Positions 2,920-58,930 of a DNA stretch of 64,000 nucleotides are shown piece by piece (position 1 is the stretch's first letter; each line of letters opens with the position of its first letter). The translations under genes were made by a program, and so were the position numbers. The stretch is taken from positions 87,074 through 151,073 of the IMG/VR virus record IMGVR_UViG_2974725113_000001; one strand, written 5' to 3'. Source of the stretch: Oliverocinquevirus OLIVR5 (Duplodnaviria > Heunggongvirae > Uroviricota > Caudoviricetes). The notes under the pieces were generated by a model. That model did not search any database and had not been told where the DNA came from. It saw only the letters and a program-made list of their open reading frames with translations.

Positions 2920-3141
2920 ATGTCAATTTCAATCGCAAGTCTTTTTCTCCTTTCGGCACTCTCATCCGGTCAAGTTGAGAAAGAGGTTGAAGCGAAATTC
3001 GAATATCGATCTGAAGAACATTGTCTCCTGATCATATCGATCGTCGAAGAAGAACTCAGGATCAACAAACTCCTCGGAAACATCAGCGATAAGGCTGTCG
3101 TTTTCGAATGTGGAAAAATCAAGAAGGTGATAAAGCAATGA
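2920..3141 (+). CDS. hypothetical small protein
   Basis: 73-aa ORF with N-terminal hydrophobic segment; ATGA overlap with the next gene. Confidence 0.3.
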   Translation: MSISIASLFLLSALSSGQVEKEVEAKFEYRSEEHCLLIISIVEEELRINKLLGNISDKAVVFECGKIKKVIKQ

Positions 3142-3677
3142 CACGATCTCCGAAGCTTGAAATGAAGGCAATGCTTTTCGCAGCAGATGCTCACGAGAAC
3201 CAGGTCCGGAAGTACACTGGCGAACCTTACATCCGTCATCCGATCGAGGTTACTTCTATCCTCTCGACGTATTTTCCAGATGACTCTATCATCCTGGCTG
3301 CTGCAGCTCTCCATGACGTTATCGAAGATTGTGGTGTGATTCGAGAAACACTCGAAGATGTTTTCGGCCACGAAGTTGCTCATCTCGTCGACGAGGTCTC
3401 TGACAAGTTCTCCGATCCTGTCCACGGCAATCGTGCAAAGAGGAAGGCTCTCGAAGCTCATCGCCTCTCACATTGCTCTATCCGAGCCCAGAACATCAAG
3501 CTCGCAGATTTCCTCTCGAATTTTCCTTCGATCCTTTTCCACGACGAGTCTTTCGCTAAGCTCTACGCTAAGGAAAAGAGATACCTCATTAACCTCATCG
3601 ATCCGAAGGTTAATCCTCTCCTTCTGACTCGCGTGAAGAATATGATCGAAGATGCAGAAAAGCGGTTTACAAACTAA
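3138..3677 (+). CDS. HD-domain (p)ppGpp hydrolase, SpoT/RelA N-terminal hydrolase-like (Mesh1-type small alarmone hydrolase)
   Basis: Matches the SpoT hydrolase domain: AADAHxxQxRKxxGEPYIxHPxEV, AAALHDVIEDCG, LVDEVSDK, RAKRK...EAHR, IKLADxLSN. The in-frame ATG at 3138 has RBS GAAGGTGA; the track start at 3108 is upstream. Confidence 0.7.
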   Translation: MTRSPKLEMKAMLFAADAHENQVRKYTGEPYIRHPIEVTSILSTYFPDDSIILAAAALHDVIEDCGVIRETLEDVFGHEVAHLVDEVSDKFSDPVHGNRAKRKALEAHRLSHCSIRAQNIKLADFLSNFPSILFHDESFAKLYAKEKRYLINLIDPKVNPLLLTRVKNMIEDAEKRFTN

Positions 3678-3694
3678 TCCTTCTGGTCTATAAA
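3666..3694 (+). promoter_or_regulatory. sigma70-like early promoter (TTTACA-N17-TATAAA)
   Basis: Near-consensus hexamers at 17-nt spacing, overlapping the stop of the hydrolase gene and upstream of 3726. Confidence 0.5.
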
Positions 3695-3725
3695 GAAATC
3701 CCAAGCATGAAACAAGGAATTCGTA

Positions 3726-4292
3726 ATGCATAACTACATCACCATCCGCAACAACTTCCTCCGTCACGTTGAAAAGAATGTTCGCGGAATTCCTTTTGAC
3801 CAGAAGGTTACTTACGTCAAGGAAAACTTCAATTCTCTCTTCGCGTCTTTCGAACAGAAGAGCTTCTTGAACTCCAACGCTGCAATCCTCCTCAAGCAGA
3901 AGACCGTTCTCGAATTCCGCACTCTCGAACGGAAGGTGACTGAAGACATCGCGAAGCATCAGGAACAGATCGACCTCACTCGACGCATGGATATCATTCG
4001 TGCATCCGATCGTGAAGACATCAAGAAGCGCGAAGATCGAATTGCGTACCTGAAGTTTAAGTACAATGCGAAGACCACCCAAGTTGATCGCGATTTCATT
4101 CCTGGAGAATTCTTCGACGAGAAGACCAGGTCGCTGAATATTTTCAAAAAGGATATTCACAATGCCGTAGAAACACGGTATAAAATAGATAAGATCGCCG
4201 ACAGCTTCTTCATTTATCCAGAAAAGGAAAAGATCGAAGAAGAGACGAATGAAATTGTCAATGTCGTTGAGTCCCGCTACTATCGAGCGTAA
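3726..4292 (+). CDS. hypothetical protein
   Basis: 188-aa ORF immediately upstream of the gp32-like gene; no motif recognised. Confidence 0.45.
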   Translation: MHNYITIRNNFLRHVEKNVRGIPFDQKVTYVKENFNSLFASFEQKSFLNSNAAILLKQKTVLEFRTLERKVTEDIAKHQEQIDLTRRMDIIRASDREDIKKREDRIAYLKFKYNAKTTQVDRDFIPGEFFDEKTRSLNIFKKDIHNAVETRYKIDKIADSFFIYPEKEKIEEETNEIVNVVESRYYRA

Positions 4293-4352
4293 TCGGTAGA
4301 ACACCAAAGAAACCCAAAACAGACTACCCCAGAAAAACCCAAGGAAATCCCA

Positions 4353-5312
4353 ATGTCTTTTGCAAGTCTCCGTGAACGCGCCAAGAATATCGAAGAAGTC
4401 CGTGATGAAGTCGCTCCTAACGAAGGTGAAGGTGGCGATCGTTATCTCCAGATTGGTATCGATAAGACCGGCGTAGCATATGTTCGTGGTCGTTTCATGC
4501 CAGCTCCCGACGGCGAGCGCTCCTCGATCGTCACGTCCGAACGTTTCAAGTTCCAGAATGACTCTGGCACCAAGGAATACTACGGACTCTCCCTCCGAAA
4601 TCTCCCCGATCCTGACAATCCTTCCAAGCGCCAGCTTGATCCTGTTCAGCCTTACCTCGATGCTCTCTGGAAGGCAGGCGACAAGGACCTCTATCGCAAG
4701 CGCAAGAAGAAGACTCCGACCTACGTCAACTTCTACGTCGAAGAAGACAAGGTCAACCCGGAAAACAACGGCAAGGTTTTCCTTTGGCGTATTCCGTACG
4801 AAATCCACGACATGGTCAAGGTTGCACTGAAGCCTGTCGAAGACAAGTACGATCCGTCGAAGACTCCGAAAGCTTTCAATCCGTTCGACCTATTCGGCGA
4901 AGCAGGTGGTCGTGACTTCATTATCCGCATCAAGGATAAGGATGGCAAGAACGACTACAGCGGTTCTCATTTCGCTGACAAGCCGAATGCTTTCCTCGAC
5001 GGTGACGAAGAAAAGATGGAAGCAGCCTGGAAGTCCTGCCACTCGCTCTTCCACTTCGTTGATCCGTCTCGTCACAAGACTCGTGAAGAACTGATCAAGA
5101 TGCTGATCGACGTTGTTGGTCCTCGCGACAAGTATCTCTCGGAAATCTATCCGGAAGAGTGCGAAGAATTCCTCTCCAAGGGTCGTGGCTCTAAGTCTGA
5201 AGAGAAATCTGAAGGCAAGCGTGAAGAACGCGAGGAAAAGAAGTCAGAACCGAAGAAGGAAGAAAAAGCTCCGAAGTCTTCAGCTGCCGAAGACCTCGAC
5301 ATCGACTTCTAA
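4353..5312 (+). CDS. 32: ssDNA-binding protein, T4 gp32-like
   Basis: Block YVNFYVEEDKVNPENNGKVFLWRIPYEIHDMVKVAL matches T4 gp32 [37 protein letters not shown]; a Cys/His cluster follows (WKSCHSLFHF); the C-terminal tail is acidic (DLDIDF); 319 aa. Confidence 0.75.
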   Translation: MSFASLRERAKNIEEVRDEVAPNEGEGGDRYLQIGIDKTGVAYVRGRFMPAPDGERSSIVTSERFKFQNDSGTKEYYGLSLRNLPDPDNPSKRQLDPVQPYLDALWKAGDKDLYRKRKKKTPTYVNFYVEEDKVNPENNGKVFLWRIPYEIHDMVKVALKPVEDKYDPSKTPKAFNPFDLFGEAGGRDFIIRIKDKDGKNDYSGSHFADKPNAFLDGDEEKMEAAWKSCHSLFHFVDPSRHKTREELIKMLIDVVGPRDKYLSEIYPEECEEFLSKGRGSKSEEKSEGKREEREEKKSEPKKEEKAPKSSAAEDLDIDF

Positions 5313-5330: not shown

Positions 5331-5358
5331 CCAAGGCCAGATTTTACTCTGGCCTTGG
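5331..5358. terminator. bidirectional stem-loop between convergent genes
   Basis: CCAAGGCCAGA-ttttac-TCTGGCCTTGG, an 11-bp perfect stem, preceded by ATCCCCTC as in the PeSL hairpins. Confidence 0.5.
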
Positions 5359-5364
5359 GTAGGG

Positions 5365-7293
5365 TTATGGCAGGACCATCATGCCGTTCACACCCATGTA
5401 ATCACGAGCGGAAACAGGATCACGGTCACGGACAGAAAGTCCGGAATCATAGTAAGCATTGTTCTCTACCTTTGTGGTCTTCACGGAGTTGACATTCGTA
5501 TTCGAAGCCTTGTCAAGAGCGGCAGCAAGAGAATCGTTAATGGCTGAAAACGCGGCTTCAGCATTAGCATTCTGAGATGCAGCATTCTCTCGAATCCTCG
5601 AAGAAGTTTCGATCGAAGACATTCGCTGGCCGATTCGTTCAGCGTACGAAGGACCTTCGGCGAACGGATTGAAATCAGAGAACGAAATCTCCTCATACAT
5701 TACAGAACCGAGGTTCTTCGCATAGTCGAAAGACTCCTTCAACTTGTTCTTCATCCCAGTGATGATGCTCGTGATAGTATCGGGAATTTCTTCCGTGAGC
5801 ATATTCATGAACGAATCCCAAGTCTCGGTGATCTTCGTCTCAACAATCCCGTAAGCGAGACCGCTCAACTTCTCCACATTGGACCACCATTTCTCGATAG
5901 GCTTAGCGATGTTCTCATCGTACGCACCGACGATAGAATCTACAGTGCCCATGAAAGCGGCTTCCACCCTCAATGCTGCGGCCGATGTCCAATTACTGAG
6001 AGCTCTTTCCTTCTCTGCAAACCATTGGACGACAGAGTTCGGAACGAGTGCAAGAAGAGCACGGTCCATGGAGCTCGAGACTTCTCCAGCCCAGTTACCG
6101 AATTTCTCGAAGAAGCTGGCATCAGCAAGAGCCATTTCCTTTTTGAAGCTTTCTTCCTTCTGTTGGATTTTCTCCAACTGCACTTTGCCATCGGCGATGA
6201 TCTTTTCGTTCGTGTTGATTTTCCTTCGAAGGATATCAGCAGTGGCGCTATTTCCAGACAATTCAGCCTGAGTCAACTGAACACGAAGTTCGGAGATTGC
6301 CAGGATGGATTTCTCAATAGCCTCGTTGATAGAAGAGGATTTCTTCTTCATATCGTCGATACGACCTTGGAGACGATCCTTGTCCGTGCCGAAGACAGAC
6401 TCAGCCAATTGATAAGTTCCGTCTACCATCGTGTCCAGAGCGCTCTGGATATAATCGCCGAATAGATAATCAACAGCGAGGGCTGCTGCTCCCAGGGCTG
6501 CTCCCACGGTGCCACCAGCAATGATCCCTGGAATTCCGAGAGGAAGACCAAGTGCTGCACCAGCTGCAGTCCATCGGCCGAGAGCATGGAACTTCGACAT
6601 GATATCGTTTTCCACACCTACGAGAAGAGCTTTGATGCCACCAGCAATTTGATTATCTCCGGACTCCGAAGCGTTCAGTGCACCCTTCGTGTAATCGGCG
6701 ATCGAGTATACGAGACCTTCGATAGCCGTGCCGATGATCGATACGAGAGCGATGCCTTTCAGAGCGATAGGAATGGCAGCCAGGATTCGAGTCTTCAGAC
6801 CCAAGAACATCGCCTTGAAGATTTCATCGGCAGACTTCTTAGGATTGACTTCTTCGACAGGATCAGAGGTCGGTTCTTGGAACTTCTCTTTTTCCTCTTT
6901 CTCCTGCTGGCGATTCTCCTTCTCGGTGTCCTTGAAGAATTGCTCGATCTTCTCAAGAGCGTCGACGGTCTCAGAAAAACCTTGCTCCGTCTTCTCCGTC
7001 AGGATTTCGAGCTGATCCTTCCTGCGAGGAGTATTCGTGGCCTTATGGAGAGCGTCACCAATCTTCCGTTGAGCAGCAGCGAATGCTTTCCCAACAGAGT
7101 TGATTTTCGCTGCGTCATAAAGAGTCATGAAGGGCTCTTTGAGCTGATCTAAGACCTGCTCACTTTTGCCCATCATGCTTTTCGCTACGGAGTCGAATTG
7201 GTCAGTGAGTTTCCTCACAGCCTTGTCGACTGTTTCCTGAACAACGCCGGCCACTTCCTTCTCGAAATTTGCGATCTTAGGAAGTGCTGCCAT
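5365..7293 (-). CDS. tape-measure-like protein (T4 gp29-like size), glycine-zipper hydrophobic core
   Basis: 642 aa; coiled-coil-prone N-terminal region; central Ala/Gly-rich hydrophobic segments (GAALGLPLGIPGIIAGGTVGAALGAAALAV); sits in a minus-strand tail/baseplate cluster beside a tube-family gene. Confidence 0.35.
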   Translation of the reverse strand: MAALPKIANFEKEVAGVVQETVDKAVRKLTDQFDSVAKSMMGKSEQVLDQLKEPFMTLYDAAKINSVGKAFAAAQRKIGDALHKATNTPRRKDQLEILTEKTEQGFSETVDALEKIEQFFKDTEKENRQQEKEEKEKFQEPTSDPVEEVNPKKSADEIFKAMFLGLKTRILAAIPIALKGIALVSIIGTAIEGLVYSIADYTKGALNASESGDNQIAGGIKALLVGVENDIMSKFHALGRWTAAGAALGLPLGIPGIIAGGTVGAALGAAALAVDYLFGDYIQSALDTMVDGTYQLAESVFGTDKDRLQGRIDDMKKKSSSINEAIEKSILAISELRVQLTQAELSGNSATADILRRKINTNEKIIADGKVQLEKIQQKEESFKKEMALADASFFEKFGNWAGEVSSSMDRALLALVPNSVVQWFAEKERALSNWTSAAALRVEAAFMGTVDSIVGAYDENIAKPIEKWWSNVEKLSGLAYGIVETKITETWDSFMNMLTEEIPDTITSIITGMKNKLKESFDYAKNLGSVMYEEISFSDFNPFAEGPSYAERIGQRMSSIETSSRIRENAASQNANAEAAFSAINDSLAAALDKASNTNVNSVKTTKVENNAYYDSGLSVRDRDPVSARDYMGVNGMMVLP

Positions 7294-19521: not shown

Positions 19522-19781
19522 TGTATGATTTGATGTTTCACAGGATAGGACTGAAGAACGAAGACAAACTCACTATTGATCTTCGCATCGACTCTATTCT
19601 AGAAGCACACGGTTTCGAATTTGTCGGAGCTGGTGGCTTCGCGGGTGAACACGGGCGAGATTATCATTATGAGAGGTCAGACTCCGTGGTCGATGTCTCT
19701 GGACTCCTCGAAGAATTGCAGAACGCAATCGGTGGAGAATACGAGAATTTCGAACTCGAACCTTCTACATGGCGAGATTAA
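19518..19781 (+). CDS. hypothetical protein
   Basis: 87-aa ORF with GTG/ATG start overlapping the glutaredoxin stop. Confidence 0.4.
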   Translation: MMYDLMFHRIGLKNEDKLTIDLRIDSILEAHGFEFVGAGGFAGEHGRDYHYERSDSVVDVSGLLEELQNAIGGEYENFELEPSTWRD

Positions 19782-21108: not shown

Positions 21109-21140
21109 AATAACTCGTCCATCATTTCTTTTCCTTTCAA

Positions 21141-29005: not shown

Positions 29006-29047
29006 GGAGTCAGAAACGAGCGAAAATAAACGCAAATTTCTGACTCC
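29006..29047 (+). terminator. stem-loop GGAGTCAGAAA...TTTCTGACTCC with large loop
   Basis: 11-bp stem with about 20-nt loop after the scaffold gene; a weak terminator at best. Confidence 0.25.
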
Positions 29048-29048
29048 T

Positions 29049-29056
29049 TAAAATAA
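29049..29056 (+). promoter_or_regulatory. late-promoter-like motif TAAAATAA upstream of the major capsid gene
   Basis: TTAAAATAAAACGAAC, about 40 nt before the ATG at 29096, with RBS GGAGAAAAG. Confidence 0.4.
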
Positions 29057-31536: not shown

Positions 31537-31605
31537 CTAATATCCTACGACTTAGTCCTTGTAAATAGCTAAATCCCCTCCAAGGCGAAATTAATTTCGC
31601 CTCGG
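31537..31605 (-). promoter_or_regulatory. PeSL-like element (hairpin with TTAATT loop, then GGAGGGGATTTAGCTATTTACA-N17-TATTAG)
   Basis: Hairpin CCAAGGCGAAA-TTAATT-TCGCCTCGG at 31580..31605; minus-strand -35 TTTACA at 31560..31565 and -10 at 31537..31542. Confidence 0.5.
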
Positions 31606-31611
31606 AAAGAT

Positions 31612-55053: not shown

Positions 55054-56160
55054 TTGGCAATTCGAGTACCAACAAAAAACATCGGAAAGAGCATAGGTGA
55101 CTATGCTTCTCTCCATAGCCTCAAAGAGATTTGCGTTTTCCAGCAATACTCAATGAGGTCTTACGAGACAGGTCTCTATGACGTTCTCACTGATGGCAAT
55201 GTCAATTCGATGGTCAAGATCATCACTGCGGCATGTGCAACGGCGAAGAAGAACGGAAATCCGATCAAAGCGGTTTCGGTCTCGTGTCCTGATCCGTCTT
55301 TCGTGAAAGGTGGAGACGATGCTCTCGAAGCTCTTCGGAAGAAGTTCTCTGTCTGTGGAGCTGACATCTTCTTGTTCGATGTCGACTACGGTTCGAATGC
55401 AAAGGAAAACCGATACGTCGTTTCCGGTCAACCTCTCGACTATGAAGCTCTCAACATCACGTACTTCAAGCACAATCGCGAAGAAAATGAACACACGATC
55501 TTCGTATGTCCAGGTTCTCCTCGACCTGAAAATCCGTTGTACGACGAGTCTGAATTCGATTACTTCCAAGAAGCGATCTTGAATTCTGATATGACATTCT
55601 TCTACAACTGGAACCAGGCAAGGTTCGGTGCATATCATCGGTGCTTCGAAGCGGCTGGAGTGACTTTCGAGATGTCTCGAAATCGTGTCATCGATGATCC
55701 TCTTCCGAGGTTCCATTACTATTTCCCGTATCGACTGACGGACAAGGACTATCTCTTCGATGAGTTCATCTCCGATCTTCCGAACGGAACGGTGGTAGCT
55801 GTGACCGATCCGAACGAATCTCTCGGTCGCATGAATGCTCTCTCTGTCGTCCAGAGTGAGAAAAATCCTGGTGTGACTCTCATGAAGATCGATCCTCGGA
55901 CTCATCTCGATATCGTCCGTTCGATCATTATTGACAACGAGATTGCTTTCAACTCTGGCAAGAAGTACAAGCCTCTTCGTCAGATCGTGATCACGTCTCG
56001 TCTCTCGAAGACTCTTCACATGGGTCCTGCTGAGATGTTCTCCATCGCGTATCCGAAAGGTGCCACGAGGAAGAAGGACATCAACCACTTCAAGTTCATC
56101 GAAGCCGGCACGACCGAATTCGAATTCGAAACAGAGAGCGAACGAGCTCTAGGAAGGTAA
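55054..56160 (+). CDS. hypothetical protein (candidate DNA-modification enzyme by position)
   Basis: 368-aa ORF whose ATG overlaps the stop of the hydroxymethylase-like gene; no glycosyltransferase motif confidently recognised. Confidence 0.4.
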   Translation: MAIRVPTKNIGKSIGDYASLHSLKEICVFQQYSMRSYETGLYDVLTDGNVNSMVKIITAACATAKKNGNPIKAVSVSCPDPSFVKGGDDALEALRKKFSVCGADIFLFDVDYGSNAKENRYVVSGQPLDYEALNITYFKHNREENEHTIFVCPGSPRPENPLYDESEFDYFQEAILNSDMTFFYNWNQARFGAYHRCFEAAGVTFEMSRNRVIDDPLPRFHYYFPYRLTDKDYLFDEFISDLPNGTVVAVTDPNESLGRMNALSVVQSEKNPGVTLMKIDPRTHLDIVRSIIIDNEIAFNSGKKYKPLRQIVITSRLSKTLHMGPAEMFSIAYPKGATRKKDINHFKFIEAGTTEFEFETESERALGR

Positions 56161-56165
56161 ATGAC

Positions 56166-56363
56166 ATGATACTTCGTCCTGAAGACGTTGAGATTAACAC
56201 ATACAGCTCCAGGCCGTCAGGGTTAGTCAATGTTGCTCCGGATGGAGTATCTATTGTCCATCTCCCTACCGGCACTGTGGCACGGTTCCACGGCTACAAG
56301 AGTCAACACAAGAACCGTTCCGTAGCCATGGAAATGATTTCTGTAGCTATCAGAAATTTGTAA
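56166..56363 (+). CDS. hypothetical small protein
   Basis: 65-aa ORF. Confidence 0.3.
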   Translation: MILRPEDVEINTYSSRPSGLVNVAPDGVSIVHLPTGTVARFHGYKSQHKNRSVAMEMISVAIRNL

Positions 56364-56370
56364 TTTTTCT

Positions 56371-56413
56371 GTTTACATCCGTTTCATTTTTGTGTAGAGT
56401 AACGGATGTAAAC
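56371..56413 (+). promoter_or_regulatory. early-type promoter embedded in a 13-bp perfect inverted repeat (operator-like)
   Basis: GTTTACATCCGTT...AACGGATGTAAAC arms at 56371..56383 and 56401..56413; TTTACA at 56372..56377; -10 TAGAGT at 56395..56400 lies between the arms. Confidence 0.45.
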
Positions 56414-56437
56414 TCAACCTCTAACGAAAGAAATCAA

Positions 56438-56641
56438 GTGAATCATCAACGGAACTTTTCCATTATCGCTCTTGTAGCGGTCGTGGTATTCTTCTTCGGA
56501 TATCTTGGTCCGGCACTCATTTCTGCAAAGAACACGATCCTCAACCTCGGCGGTGTATTCCTCGGAGTCCTGCTGATCTACGTGATCGTGACTCTGGCAT
56601 ACAACGTCATTCAGAAACTCGTCAAAGGAAAGAACTCTTGA
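56438..56641 (+). CDS. small two-TM membrane protein (holin-like or NfeD-like partner)
   Basis: In-frame GTG start (the track ORF begins with TTG at 56390; no ATG in frame); two hydrophobic helices (FSIIALVAVVVFFFGYLGPALI and LGGVFLGVLLIYVIVTLAY); basic C-terminus KLVKGKNS; stop overlaps the start of the next gene (TTGA). Confidence 0.4.
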   Translation: MNHQRNFSIIALVAVVVFFFGYLGPALISAKNTILNLGGVFLGVLLIYVIVTLAYNVIQKLVKGKNS

Positions 56642-57477
56642 AGCTATCTCGCATTATCTCCGTCGGTCTCCTGGCCGCTCTCGTCGCATCCTGTGCTCGT
56701 GTCGAAGCCGGTAACGTCGGCATCAAGGTCAAGCTCCTTGGTGACGAAAAAGGTGTAAGCAACACCGAAGTCCTCGGTCCTGGTCGATACTGGGAAGGTT
56801 GGAACGAAAAGATTTACACGTTCCCGACTTTCACCCAGAACAAAATCTGGGAAGGTGAAAAGGGTTCCGAGAAGAAGGCATTCGAATTCCAGACCAACCA
56901 GGGCATGGTCGTCTCCGTCGATATGGGTCTCTCGTACTACGTCCAGGCGGAATCTGCTGCAACTGTTTTCCAGAAGTATCGACGCGGTATCGACGAAATT
57001 ACCGACGTCTATCTGAAGAACATGATCCGCGACTCTCTTGTTGCCGAAGGTTCGAAGATCACCGTTGAAGACGCTTATGGTGCTGGCAAGGAAGCTCTCC
57101 TCGAACGTGTCCAGGAACGTGTCCGCAAGCAGGTCGAAGATATCGGCATCAAGATCGAGCGAATTTACTGGATTGGTCAGTTCCAGCTTCCTCAGGAAGT
57201 TATCGAGAAGATCAACGCGAAAATCCAGGCAGGTCAGATGACTGAGCAGCGTCTTCAGGAAGTCGAACAATCTCGAGCTGAAGCTCAGAAGCTGGAAGCT
57301 GAAGCTCTCGGTCTGAAGAACGCAGCCATTCTCAAGGCTGAAGGCGAAGCGGAAGCTAACCGACTCATCACAGAGTCGATCTCTGAAGAACTGATTCGGT
57401 ACAAGCAGATCGACACCTGGGATGGTGTACTTCCGAAGGTTACCGGTGGTGCAACTCCGATGATTAAGATCGATTGA
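56638..57477 (+). CDS. SPFH/band-7 (prohibitin/stomatin-like) lipoprotein
   Basis: TTG start with RBS AAAGGAAAG 6 nt upstream; lipoprotein signal MKLSRIISVGLLAALVAS-C; SPFH-domain body with C-terminal Ala/Glu-rich coiled coil (RLQEVEQSRAEAQKLEAEALGLKNAAILKAEGEAEANRL); 279 aa. Confidence 0.65.
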   Translation: MKLSRIISVGLLAALVASCARVEAGNVGIKVKLLGDEKGVSNTEVLGPGRYWEGWNEKIYTFPTFTQNKIWEGEKGSEKKAFEFQTNQGMVVSVDMGLSYYVQAESAATVFQKYRRGIDEITDVYLKNMIRDSLVAEGSKITVEDAYGAGKEALLERVQERVRKQVEDIGIKIERIYWIGQFQLPQEVIEKINAKIQAGQMTEQRLQEVEQSRAEAQKLEAEALGLKNAAILKAEGEAEANRLITESISEELIRYKQIDTWDGVLPKVTGGATPMIKID

Positions 57478-57487
57478 TCAAACTTTC

Positions 57488-57553
57488 CAAGGCGATTAAT
57501 TTCGCCTTGGAGGGGATTTAGACGTTTACGAAAACAATTTCCTATTATATGCT
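57488..57553 (+). promoter_or_regulatory. PeSL-like element (perfect hairpin CCAAGGCGA-TTAATT-TCGCCTTGG, then GAGGGGATTTAGACGTTTACG-N17-TATGCT)
   Basis: Hairpin at 57488..57510; -35 TTTACG at 57525..57530; -10 at 57548..57553. Confidence 0.5.
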
Positions 57554-58307: not shown

Positions 58308-58336
58308 TTTACAAGGTCTAAATCGTGTGATAGACG
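58308..58336 (+). promoter_or_regulatory. early-type promoter (TTTACA-N17-TAGACG)
   Basis: TTTACAAGGTCTAAATCG shares the conserved spacer; starts immediately after the stop of the upstream gene. Confidence 0.4.
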
Positions 58337-58462
58337 TAAGAGAAATCTTTAACGAAAATCAGGAGCTAGTCTTGACCAGGTCTGAATTTATCTCTTTCGT
58401 CTCTTGCGTGATCGTAATTCTTGCATCCGTCCACGTAATCACGAAAATCTTCGGAGTTTAAA

Positions 58463-58930
58463 ATGGAAGACTTTTCTAAATACGAGAAACTGAACGAGCT
58501 CAAAGACAGTCTAAAAGCCGCTCTCGATCTCTTCGACTCGAATCAGTCCTATTCCGCAAGTCGAAATTTCTACCACCGAACGAGAAGTTCATATCATCGT
58601 ACTACAGGTAAGGCGTATCCGAAGCACATTAAGAGTCTTTATCACAACGTGATCGAGGCCAGGACGATCCTTGCGCACCTCAGGCATTTCAACTCTTTGA
58701 GTTGTGTTTCTCGAGACGAAATCGAGTTCGCCGAGAAGTTCACGGCTGTATACGTCGAAGATCATTTTTCAAAAGAATACGACCTCCTTCTGGAAATACT
58801 CAGAGCTAAAGAGGACTTCGAGATAGAGAAGATTACGAAGAAGAAGCGGAACCAGGATTTGGCTATGGCTTTCACTGCTGCCGCGGTCATCGTCCTGGCA
58901 GTCATTTATCGGCTTTTCCAGGATTTCTGA
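58463..58930 (+). CDS. hypothetical protein with C-terminal TM helix
   Basis: 155 aa; C-terminal LAMAFTAAAVIVLAVIYRLF. Confidence 0.4.
   Translation: MEDFSKYEKLNELKDSLKAALDLFDSNQSYSASRNFYHRTRSSYHRTTGKAYPKHIKSLYHNVIEARTILAHLRHFNSLSCVSRDEIEFAEKFTAVYVEDHFSKEYDLLLEILRAKEDFEIEKITKKKRNQDLAMAFTAAAVIVLAVIYRLFQDF

Follow-up and report, generated by a model that had tools for sequence, protein, structure and literature searches.

Two overlapping genes encode a small membrane protein and an SPFH lipoprotein

We analyzed a 64,000-nucleotide stretch of viral DNA (the window; positions 87,074 to 151,073 of IMG/VR record IMGVR_UViG_2974725113_000001) and focused on two overlapping genes, one for a small two-helix membrane protein and one for a lipoprotein with an SPFH (stomatin/prohibitin/flotillin/HflK/C) or Band_7 domain. 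The DNA of the region matches Agrobacterium phage OLIVR5 (MT234342 / NC_055841; Pootjesviridae, Heverleevirus) and OLIVR6 at 100% identity, and the Rhizobium phages IC12, LG08 and IG49 at 95-98%. The whole OLIVR5 genome is 151 kb, and a window position equals the OLIVR5 record position minus 87,073. The two genes are named gp245 ('hypothetical protein') and gp246 ('protein QmcA') in GenBank, and RefSeq gives 'lipoprotein' as product name for gp246; both genes and the SPFH identity in OLIVR5 were already annotated before the present analysis, and phage SPFH genes have been on record since 2006 (PMC1524935). The locus contains the following features.

56371..56383: left arm (GTTTACATCCGTT) of a palindrome; contains the promoter -35 hexamer and is invariant in four related phages
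56372..56400 (+): sigma-70-like phage promoter, with TTTACA at 56372-56377, a 17-nt spacer, TAGAGT at 56395-56400 and a T-rich sequence upstream
56401..56413: right arm (AACGGATGTAAAC) of the palindrome; overlaps the probable transcription start
56438..56641 (+): gp245, gene for the small, predicted inner-membrane protein of 67 amino acids (aa) with two transmembrane (TM) helices, phrog_1130; GTG start, TGA stop at 56639-56641
56625-56629 (+): Shine-Dalgarno-like AAGGA, 8 nt before the TTG of gp246 and within the end of gp245; read directly from the sequence
56638..57477 (+): gp246, SPFH/Band_7 lipoprotein gene; TTG start, 279 aa
57483..57514 (+): hairpin with a 13-bp stem, 3' of the gp246 stop; -22.9 kcal/mol, z-score -5.9, 0 of 200 shuffles as stable

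An earlier note on this DNA, made from the letters alone, had proposed GTG 56438 as start of the small open reading frame (ORF), whereas the RefSeq start is TTG 56390, 48 nt earlier, giving 83 aa. Among four phages the substitutions in the GTG frame were 7 synonymous and 1 non-synonymous (a conservative V to I), as compared to 1:7 and 0:8 in the other two frames. This pattern, a 1-nt insertion in three related phages that puts TTG 56390 out of frame, the N-terminus MNHT(R/K) that begins in L106 and L107 at an ATG aligned with the GTG and matches MNHQR, and a probable transcription start downstream of 56390 all show that GTG 56438 is correct and the RefSeq start wrong. The ribosome-binding signal of the GTG is a weak GAAAG. 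Because of the 7:1 ratio and the many clusters of homologues, sequence comparison indicates that the small ORF is a real coding gene coupled to the SPFH gene, and the objection that it might be untranslated is contradicted by the coding pattern.

The stop of the small ORF and the start of the SPFH gene share the tetranucleotide TTGA at 56638-56641, exactly as described earlier. No alternative start codon is found between TTG 56638 and the lipobox, and a 73%-identical relative also uses TTG. The Shine-Dalgarno sequence, which had been called strong, is present as AAGGA and is better described as fair. As the earlier note had anticipated, the product of 56638..57477 matched the Pfam profile Band_7 (PF01145) clearly, over residues 21-216 (E=2.3e-24, 86.8 bits against a gathering cut-off of 23.6), and it belongs to phrog_200 ('lipoprotein') with E=8e-77. 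Its N-terminus, MKLSRIISVGLLAALVAS-C, consists of a signal peptide (aa 1-18) and the lipobox V-A-S-C with Cys19 at 56692-56694, and a basic n-region, a hydrophobic h-region and a lipobox of the form [LVI][ASTVI][GAS]-C are all found within the first 35 residues. All 24 aligned homologues (46-100% identity) keep Cys19, and the lipobox is present in 60 non-redundant SPFH homologues, which confirms that the lipoprotein signal is genuine. About 58 residues of the protein are invariant across hosts of different classes.

In an AlphaFold2 model of the monomer (mean pLDDT 82) the SPFH domain is followed by a 62-residue helix (aa 186-247), a short helix and a tail (267-279), which is of low confidence and bears a conserved W-x-G-x-x-P motif. 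With this model, HflK was the top-ranking full-length match in Foldseek, together with prohibitin 1/2, HflC, erlin and stomatin (E from 1e-12 to 1e-9); flotillin was matched over its full length as well, and the major vault protein more distantly. The model thus has the alpha/beta domain and the long helix seen in cage-forming members, and all the proteins that it matches build rings or cages on membranes.

The two genes are paired in phages of unrelated lineages

An SPFH homologue was detected by tblastn in 755 of 50,697 phage records, with hosts that include Staphylococcus, Pseudomonas, Enterococcus, Klebsiella, Erwinia, Bacillus, Escherichia, Burkholderia and Caulobacter. The pairing was analyzed in 80 IMG/VR loci recovered with the SPFH profile, in which the small protein was detected by hidden Markov model (HMM). 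A small-protein homologue was found in 77 of these loci; its strand was that of the SPFH gene in every case, and with few exceptions it lay directly upstream. The commonest junction was a 4-nt overlap (ATGA; TTGA in OLIVR5), seen in 19 of 59 non-redundant loci, and most of the others were short overlaps or gaps. The reciprocal test started from four small-protein homologues that a profile search had found, and in 8 of 8 places the next gene downstream was a Band_7 gene. Together, the two counts establish the pair as a conserved functional unit. In one of the 80 loci (L025 2770-3852; IMG/VR UViG_2645727527_000001) the two proteins are fused in frame: the hairpin comes first, then a basic linker and the signal peptide with its lipobox, and finally the SPFH domain; no fusion was seen among the best 150 small-protein representatives.

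The small protein is a member of phrog_1130 (E=3.7e-9 in the PHROG search), and the size of its family depends on the depth of the search: a single sequence recovered near-identical proteins only, a word-index profile search gave 19, and an exhaustive profile search revealed the family, with at least 1,255 clusters at 50% identity, almost all of 55-100 aa. Residues of the motif P25-x3-S29...G39, in the loop between the helices and at the start of helix 2, are invariant. The gene is often unannotated or mis-started, as in RefSeq OLIVR5, IC12, the P1-like RCS47 and E. coli RefSeq chromosomes and plasmids, and we recovered it where unannotated in RCS47 and in an E. coli P2-like prophage. The positions concerned are given below.

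Window 56390..56437: small-gene annotation problem
L003 1900-2979: small-gene annotation problem
L086 3772-4017: small-gene annotation problem
L105 6723-6941: small-gene annotation problem

A 1,080-nt 'lipoprotein' coding sequence (CDS) in IC12 was rejected as an annotation artefact with the small gene merged in the wrong frame, since it overlaps the small ORF in the frame with 0 synonymous and 8 non-synonymous changes; it begins at a GTG made by an A-to-G change in the right arm of the palindrome. The phrog_200 profile has 84 extra N-terminal positions, some of which may stem from mis-annotated long ORFs of this kind.

The pair also occurs in bacterial genomes. As judged by DNA similarity, 460 of 5,426 complete E. 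coli genomes carry the E. coli version of the SPFH gene, in P1-like plasmid prophages and in chromosomes, and the three bacterial loci that we inspected (two marine bacterial copies and one E. coli chromosomal copy) are all prophages. In N4-like, P1-like, P2-like, Pseudomonas and marine prophage loci the pair lies among early or replication genes, and in temperate relatives it lies within early operons. In RCS47 (L086) the SPFH pair, at 2980-4931, is located between upl/plp and a tRNA-Met gene, upstream of a dnaB-type helicase gene, a position at which phage P1 presumably has the tciA-C genes. Overall, hundreds of phages from unrelated lineages have the pair, which behaves like a mobile early cassette. 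In the 80 loci, guilt by association did not identify a conserved neighbour of the pair, and clustering of the neighbouring ORFs gave no other family in more than 6 loci; neither protein matched a defence-system profile of PADLOC-DB 2.0 at E values up to 1.

In OLIVR5 the pair accompanies T4-type modules (baseplate, sheath, portal, DNA end protector, RNR, clamp loader and late sigma factor), and the T4 framing of the earlier note is reasonable in a broad sense. Its view that SPFH genes lie outside the T4 core also agrees with the literature, where they are accessory and not core genes in phages with T4-like modules (PMC1524935).

Predicted topology places the SPFH domain outside the cytoplasm

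Counts of K+R in the hairpin family average 1.25 for the N-tail, 0.43 for the loop and 3.0 for the C-tail. Because of this positive-inside distribution both ends of the hairpin protein are predicted to be cytoplasmic, and the conserved loop (P-x3-S...G) periplasmic. The extramembrane loop has only about 10 residues and nearly the whole protein is membrane-embedded. The order of parts in the L025 fusion is topologically consistent only with an SPFH domain that lies outside the cytoplasm, adjoining the hairpin. The signals of the SPFH protein are those of extracytoplasmic anchoring as well, with lipidation probable at Cys19; several homologues, phage K ORF28 among them, have an uncleaved TM anchor instead of the lipobox. 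An Asp at position +2 after the lipid Cys is the classical inner-membrane retention signal, and Asp (C-D-R) is found in both E. coli prophage versions that we read. For the OLIVR5 protein, an inner-membrane location in Agrobacterium is presumed.

The predicted orientation bears directly on the likeness to bacterial NfeD-stomatin or YqiJ/K pairs that the earlier note had seen, and thereby on the idea that the cassette is a phage copy of the cellular NfeD-stomatin / QmcA-YbbJ membrane quality-control pair, which the GenBank name of gp246 suggests as well. Bacterial SPFH genes commonly lie in operons with a small membrane-protein gene (reference 7 of PMC9872710), and this co-transcription is what OLIVR5 has in common with QmcA-YbbJ and YqiK-YqiJ; in addition, QmcA (PDB 8z5g) was the best sequence match among solved structures (E=3.5e-6). 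The match is however confined to the C-terminal helical part (profile positions 163-279), and neither Pfam nor NCBIfam gave an NfeD or OB-fold match for the partner, which has only the loop of about 10 residues outside the membrane. Furthermore, the lipoprotein signal replaces the N-terminal TM anchor and would make the domain periplasmic instead of cytoplasmic, on the opposite side from QmcA and YqiK; the SPFH domain of QmcA is reportedly cytoplasmic, as Chiba et al. are said to have found in 2006. With all three inspected bacterial loci being prophages, this origin is largely refuted and we give it hardly any credence. A spanin reading of the pair was likewise tried and rejected: the partner lacks a periplasmic coiled coil, the lipoprotein is a large globular protein, and homologues exist in Gram-positive phages.

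The pair has its own promoter of a phage-specific family

The promoter at 56372 matches the sigma-70 consensus in only 9 of 12 hexamer positions, and a plain sigma-70 consensus scan was no better than chance (9 sites against 7.5 expected). This generic scan was replaced by a phage-specific weight matrix made from intergenic sites. TTTAC is 4.5-fold enriched in intergenic DNA, with 24 of its 117 occurrences in 4.5% of the sequence, and the OLIVR5 promoter family has a T-rich stretch, TTTAC(A/T), 17-18 nt and TA(G/T)(A/G)NT (short form TTTACa-N17-TAgaaT). Of 13 intergenic sites that were aligned, 12 went into a leave-one-out matrix for the remaining one, 56372-56400, which scored 23.4 bits and ranked 10 of 127,882 positions; 8 of the 9 higher-scoring positions are training sites. 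The best of 20 shuffled windows reached 17.2 bits. The promoter that had been proposed ahead of the pair is thus real in the sense of being a clear member of the phage promoter family, the other sites of which are listed here together with it.

1150, 2312, 15398, 19220, 19827, 43782, 44749 (+): promoter-family sites
46841, 48634, 56372, 57525, 59462, 60213, 62855 (+): promoter-family sites, continued
12464, 58308 (+): candidate promoter-family sites
36103, 31565, 37459 (-): candidate promoter-family sites

Sites of this family lie 5' of the RNR, glutaredoxin, primase/helicase and helicase genes and of small early ORFs. The structural genes instead have AAAATAAA-like motifs, at about 21190, 21668, 24985 and 29025-29055, which resemble T4 late promoters. 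Since the family precedes DNA-metabolism genes and the structural genes carry the other motif, the pair would be expressed early or middle in infection by a host-type RNA polymerase, with transcription probably starting around 56406-56408.

The hairpin at 57483..57514 probably terminates the transcript, although a clear U-tract is not seen, and the next promoter of the same family follows directly, at 57525. With promoter 56372 before it, and the hairpin and promoter 57525 after it, the gp245-gp246 pair stands by itself as a unit of about 1.1 kb. The pair of an N4-like phage also has annotated terminators on both sides. Intergenic hairpins with the common core CCAAGGC...GCCTTGG are found at 5331-5358, 31579-31606 and 57487-57510 of the window and at 19585 and 26076 of the OLIVR5 record. 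They are often followed by (T)nAGGGG rather than by a plain T-run, hairpin-plus-AGGGG arrangements being also present near 21140, 30470 and 62815, and they look like a phage-specific terminator or processing signal.

An early promoter has consequences for the two functions that the earlier note had considered, lysis timing and superinfection exclusion. In a lysis-timing module the small protein would be a class II holin or antiholin and the SPFH scaffold would control its clustering and the time of lysis. The gross features of class II holins are indeed present (about 67 aa, two TM helices, cytoplasmic ends and a basic C-terminus), and they are not specific to holins; Pfam and PHROG searches found no sequence or profile similarity to class II holins. 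What stands against this function is that the promoter is early-type and not late-type, that the OLIVR5 cassette is about 120 kb from the amidase gene, and that the pair of the N4-like, P1-like, P2-like, Pseudomonas and marine prophage loci keeps to the early or replication genes; a P1-like phage such as RCS47 presumably has a holin system of its own. The best case for lysis comes from the Staphylococcus Kayvirus pair MbpV/MbpS (phage K ORF29/ORF28), where the SPFH gene mbpS and the holin-like TM gene mbpV lie directly 3' of the endolysin gene, in the lysis region, and for which the authors discuss a lysis-related role (PMC7150955). ORF28 belongs to phrog_200 (E=1e-92) and is preceded by the small TM-protein gene with a 1-nt overlap, much as in the coupled OLIVR5 pair. 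MbpS has a TM anchor, however, and not a lipobox, its partner is a single-TM protein of 102 aa from phrog_3667 that is not homologous to the hairpin protein, and Kayvirus is the only case of a lysin-adjacent SPFH gene. The holin idea is therefore weak, and we regard a role in lysis timing as improbable.

Superinfection exclusion or envelope protection, in which an early periplasmic and inner-membrane pair would block the DNA entry of secondary phages or lysis from without, fits the early-type promoter and the envelope location. Phage T4 offers a parallel, with Imm as a small two-TM inner-membrane protein and Sp as a periplasmic, membrane-anchored early protein; neither Pfam nor PHROG searches revealed sequence or profile similarity between the T4 proteins and the OLIVR5 pair. 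The patchy, cassette-like spread over unrelated virulent and temperate phages, without conserved neighbours, and the PHROGs category of the small partner ('moron, auxiliary metabolic gene and host takeover') also agree with exclusion. The pair of an N4-like phage is preceded by a gene of the Pfam GP17 family, 'superinfection exclusion gene product 17', and in the Vi01-like PhiSH19 the SPFH gene adjoins a gene annotated 'superinfection exclusion protein' (PMC3220722), where it is the annotation label only that points to exclusion. Adjacency to the GP17-family gene is limited to two lineages and is not seen in the 80 loci, and the N4-like neighbour, a P22 gp17-type protein, is not informative. 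Exclusion proteins are usually lineage-specific, whereas some 58 residues kept invariant across host classes would fit self-assembly or a universal host partner better than they fit a protein that recognises certain incoming phages; there was no PADLOC match either. On balance we consider exclusion unlikely, yet a better candidate than lysis timing.

A palindrome overlaps the promoter in the OLIVR5 clade

The perfect 13-bp inverted repeats reported at 56371-56383 and 56401-56413 were confirmed. With their 17-nt spacer they are the longest perfect close-range inverted repeat in the window, and the chance expectation for such a repeat in the 151-kb genome is about 0.1. The -10 and the start site had both been placed between the arms; the -10 does lie in the loop, whereas the start site would fall about 7 nt downstream of it, inside the right arm, and the -35 itself is part of the left arm. 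In IC12, LG08 and IG49 the innermost base of the right arm is G, which leaves 12 perfect pairs plus T:G. Over four phages the variable columns are 0 of 13 and 1 of 13 in the arms and 3 of 17 in the loop. The left arm corresponds to an extended -35, of which near-copies, GTTTACATCC(G), are found at record positions 6567, 15588 and 133914, the last being also recovered as a new promoter site by the weight matrix. A half-site search of the window with up to 3 mismatches gave 18 matches against 15.9 expected, which is no excess, and a search of the whole 151-kb genome for a second palindromic copy found none, only single near-copies.

The palindrome is restricted to the OLIVR5 clade, that is the four closest phages. 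In relatives with a 61-73% identical SPFH protein the small gene begins 9-19 nt after the upstream gene, with neither promoter nor palindrome. Because of these relatives the palindrome is placed outside the conserved module, and sequence comparison indicates that it is a recent clade-specific addition tied to an inserted upstream gene with an RF-1 domain.

Regulation through this element, as suggested in the earlier note, would require it to be an operator at which a dimeric DNA-binding protein covers both the -35 and the start site. In favour of recognition by some factor, the palindrome is perfect, statistically unexpected and conserved in four phages, its arms bracket the -10, and its half-site is the extended -35 GTTTACATCC found elsewhere in the genome, so something may recognise it. 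Alternatively, the palindrome could act as an RNA hairpin in read-through transcripts from the RF-1-domain gene, or be a by-product of a duplication of the extended -35. As RNA it folds at -18.5 kcal/mol with a z-score of -2.8, and the sole change in the arms (A to G) retains a G:U pair, which fits RNA pairing as well as it fits a 12-bp operator; the four carrier phages are too similar to reveal covariation. A transcript from the 56372 promoter would hold the right arm only. The operator in turn is weakened by the lack of a second palindromic copy in the 151-kb genome, by the absence of the palindrome from relatives with a 61-73% identical SPFH protein, and by our having identified no candidate regulator, and we hold it to be a tentative explanation with the odds somewhat against it. 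An intrinsic terminator was rejected as a reading of the palindrome, which has a 17-nt loop and no U-tract.

Neighbouring genes

The genes around the cassette are the following.

55054..56160 (+): 368-aa ORF from TTG 55054 (RefSeq start ATG 55153), a member of phrog_3891
56166..56363 (+): 65-aa protein that matches the RF-1 (peptide chain release factor) domain
58327..58461 (+): small predicted membrane protein, 44 aa
58463..58930 (+): small predicted membrane protein, 155 aa, with a TM helix at the C-terminus

The RF-1 match has E=1.6e-8 and 35.0 bits, which is at but not above the Pfam gathering score of 35. The protein lacks the catalytic GGQ tripeptide and has RPSGLVNVAPDG at the GGQ position of release factors; a GGQ-less mini release-factor domain is unusual in a phage. 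The RF-1-domain gene is missing in the 61%-identity relative L107. The phrog_3891 ORF, which in OLIVR5 is flanked by a dCMP hydroxymethylase-like gene and the RF-1-domain gene, is kept in L107 (a 155-kb relative), where it encodes 382 aa and lies directly 5' of the small gene. Pfam and PHROG searches gave no match for the products of 58327..58461 and 58463..58930, which lie downstream of the cassette.

A model for the SPFH cassette

Taken together, our results suggest that this OLIVR5 region is an autonomous early or middle transcription unit made up of a sigma-70-type promoter, a GTG gene, a coupled TTG gene and a hairpin. The first product would be a 67-aa two-helix hairpin in the inner membrane, and the second would leave the cytoplasm, receive its lipid at Cys19 and stay anchored to the periplasmic side of the same membrane. 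There, the SPFH lipoprotein may oligomerise into an HflK/C-like periplasmic dome (a ring or cage), as its SPFH domain, helix of about 60 residues and conserved C-terminal tail would be the building blocks of the membrane-capping HflK/C, prohibitin, stomatin and erlin assemblies. The hairpin protein, made in a fixed ratio through coupled translation, would supply the TM part that HflK/C subunits carry themselves, giving a 'split' HflK-type complex. Such a complex could fence off a patch of the host inner membrane early in infection and thereby control a host inner-membrane protein, with an FtsH-type protease, a recurrent client of SPFH cages, as lead candidate. Leaving the client aside, we consider the structural and organisational part of this model, an early accessory cassette for a periplasmic SPFH ring docked to the hairpin protein, to be moderately probable. 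That the client is FtsH, or that the cassette controls proteolysis, is a guess that we would rather doubt than believe. Among the functions, control of an inner-membrane protease or other machine ranks first, because of the recurrent partnership of SPFH proteins with FtsH-type proteases, the predicted orientation toward the periplasm and the fact that temperate phages have the pair in early operons. Second comes superinfection exclusion or envelope protection, and third lysis timing.

Several observations weigh against the model. The likeness to HflK and HflC is at the level of fold only, since the NCBIfam equivalog scores are about 20 bits (20.1 for TIGR01933 and 19.8 for TIGR01932) as compared to cut-offs of 159.4 and 134.4. 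Ring formation and contact between the hairpin and the SPFH protein are presumed from the fold and the pairing, and the structure prediction covers the monomer only. In Gram-positive phages the homologues, such as phage K ORF28, are paired with an unrelated single-TM protein, and the hairpin is therefore not universally required. Nothing found for the cassette points to FtsH in particular. Position +2 is mostly Ser in the non-enterobacterial homologues (48 of 60) and is Ala in OLIVR5, and the E. coli sorting rule would send a lipoprotein with Ser at +2 to the outer membrane. A Pasteurella prophage SPFH protein (PM0222), perhaps a member of this family, has been found in outer-membrane vesicles (PMC9872710). 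Moreover, the searchable literature holds no functional study of any family member, and the presence or role of SPFH genes in phages is described there as unexplained or unclear (PMC13239085, PMC7150955, PMC1524935, PMC3220722).

Comparison with known systems and implications

The closest counterparts of the OLIVR5 pair are other phrog_200/phrog_1130 pairs, as in the N4-like vB_Eco_SPSP_018/019, the P1-like RCS47 (p0073) and the Klebsiella Mydovirus (M5a_00089/00087), which have the same order, strand, coupling, lipobox and loop motif. Specific to the OLIVR5 lineage are the TTG and GTG starts, a promoter of its own with the palindrome, and Ala at +2. E. coli HflK/HflC, the best full-length fold match, has the same order of SPFH domain, long helix and conserved C-terminal tail, and has its SPFH domain on the periplasmic face, the side that is predicted for OLIVR5. 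Unlike HflK/HflC, with their N-terminal TM helix and two paralogues, OLIVR5 has a lipid anchor, a separate two-TM partner and a single SPFH gene.

The phrog_1130/phrog_200 pair may be a phage-specific 'split HflK/C' that captures or fences a universal inner-membrane machine early in infection, a proposal that we put forward as a long shot. Possible targets are FtsH or another protease of its kind, a complex for secretion or lipid synthesis, and the site of DNA entry. If true, this would be a general means by which viruses control the host envelope, common to virulent myoviruses and to N4-like, P1-like and P2-like phages, with its SPFH gene in about 8% of complete E. coli genomes as judged by DNA similarity. 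What is new here is the family context, in which the SPFH lipoprotein is almost never found without a specific tiny two-helix membrane protein, and the interest lies in this conserved pairing and in the breadth of the family, not in the OLIVR5 copy. SPFH cages are now structurally understood as membrane-fencing machines. Why phages need SPFH proteins is still termed 'unclear' in a 2026 paper (PMC13239085), and a viral version that faces the periplasm, has two components and is represented by homologues in E. coli prophages would be a tractable system in which to find out.

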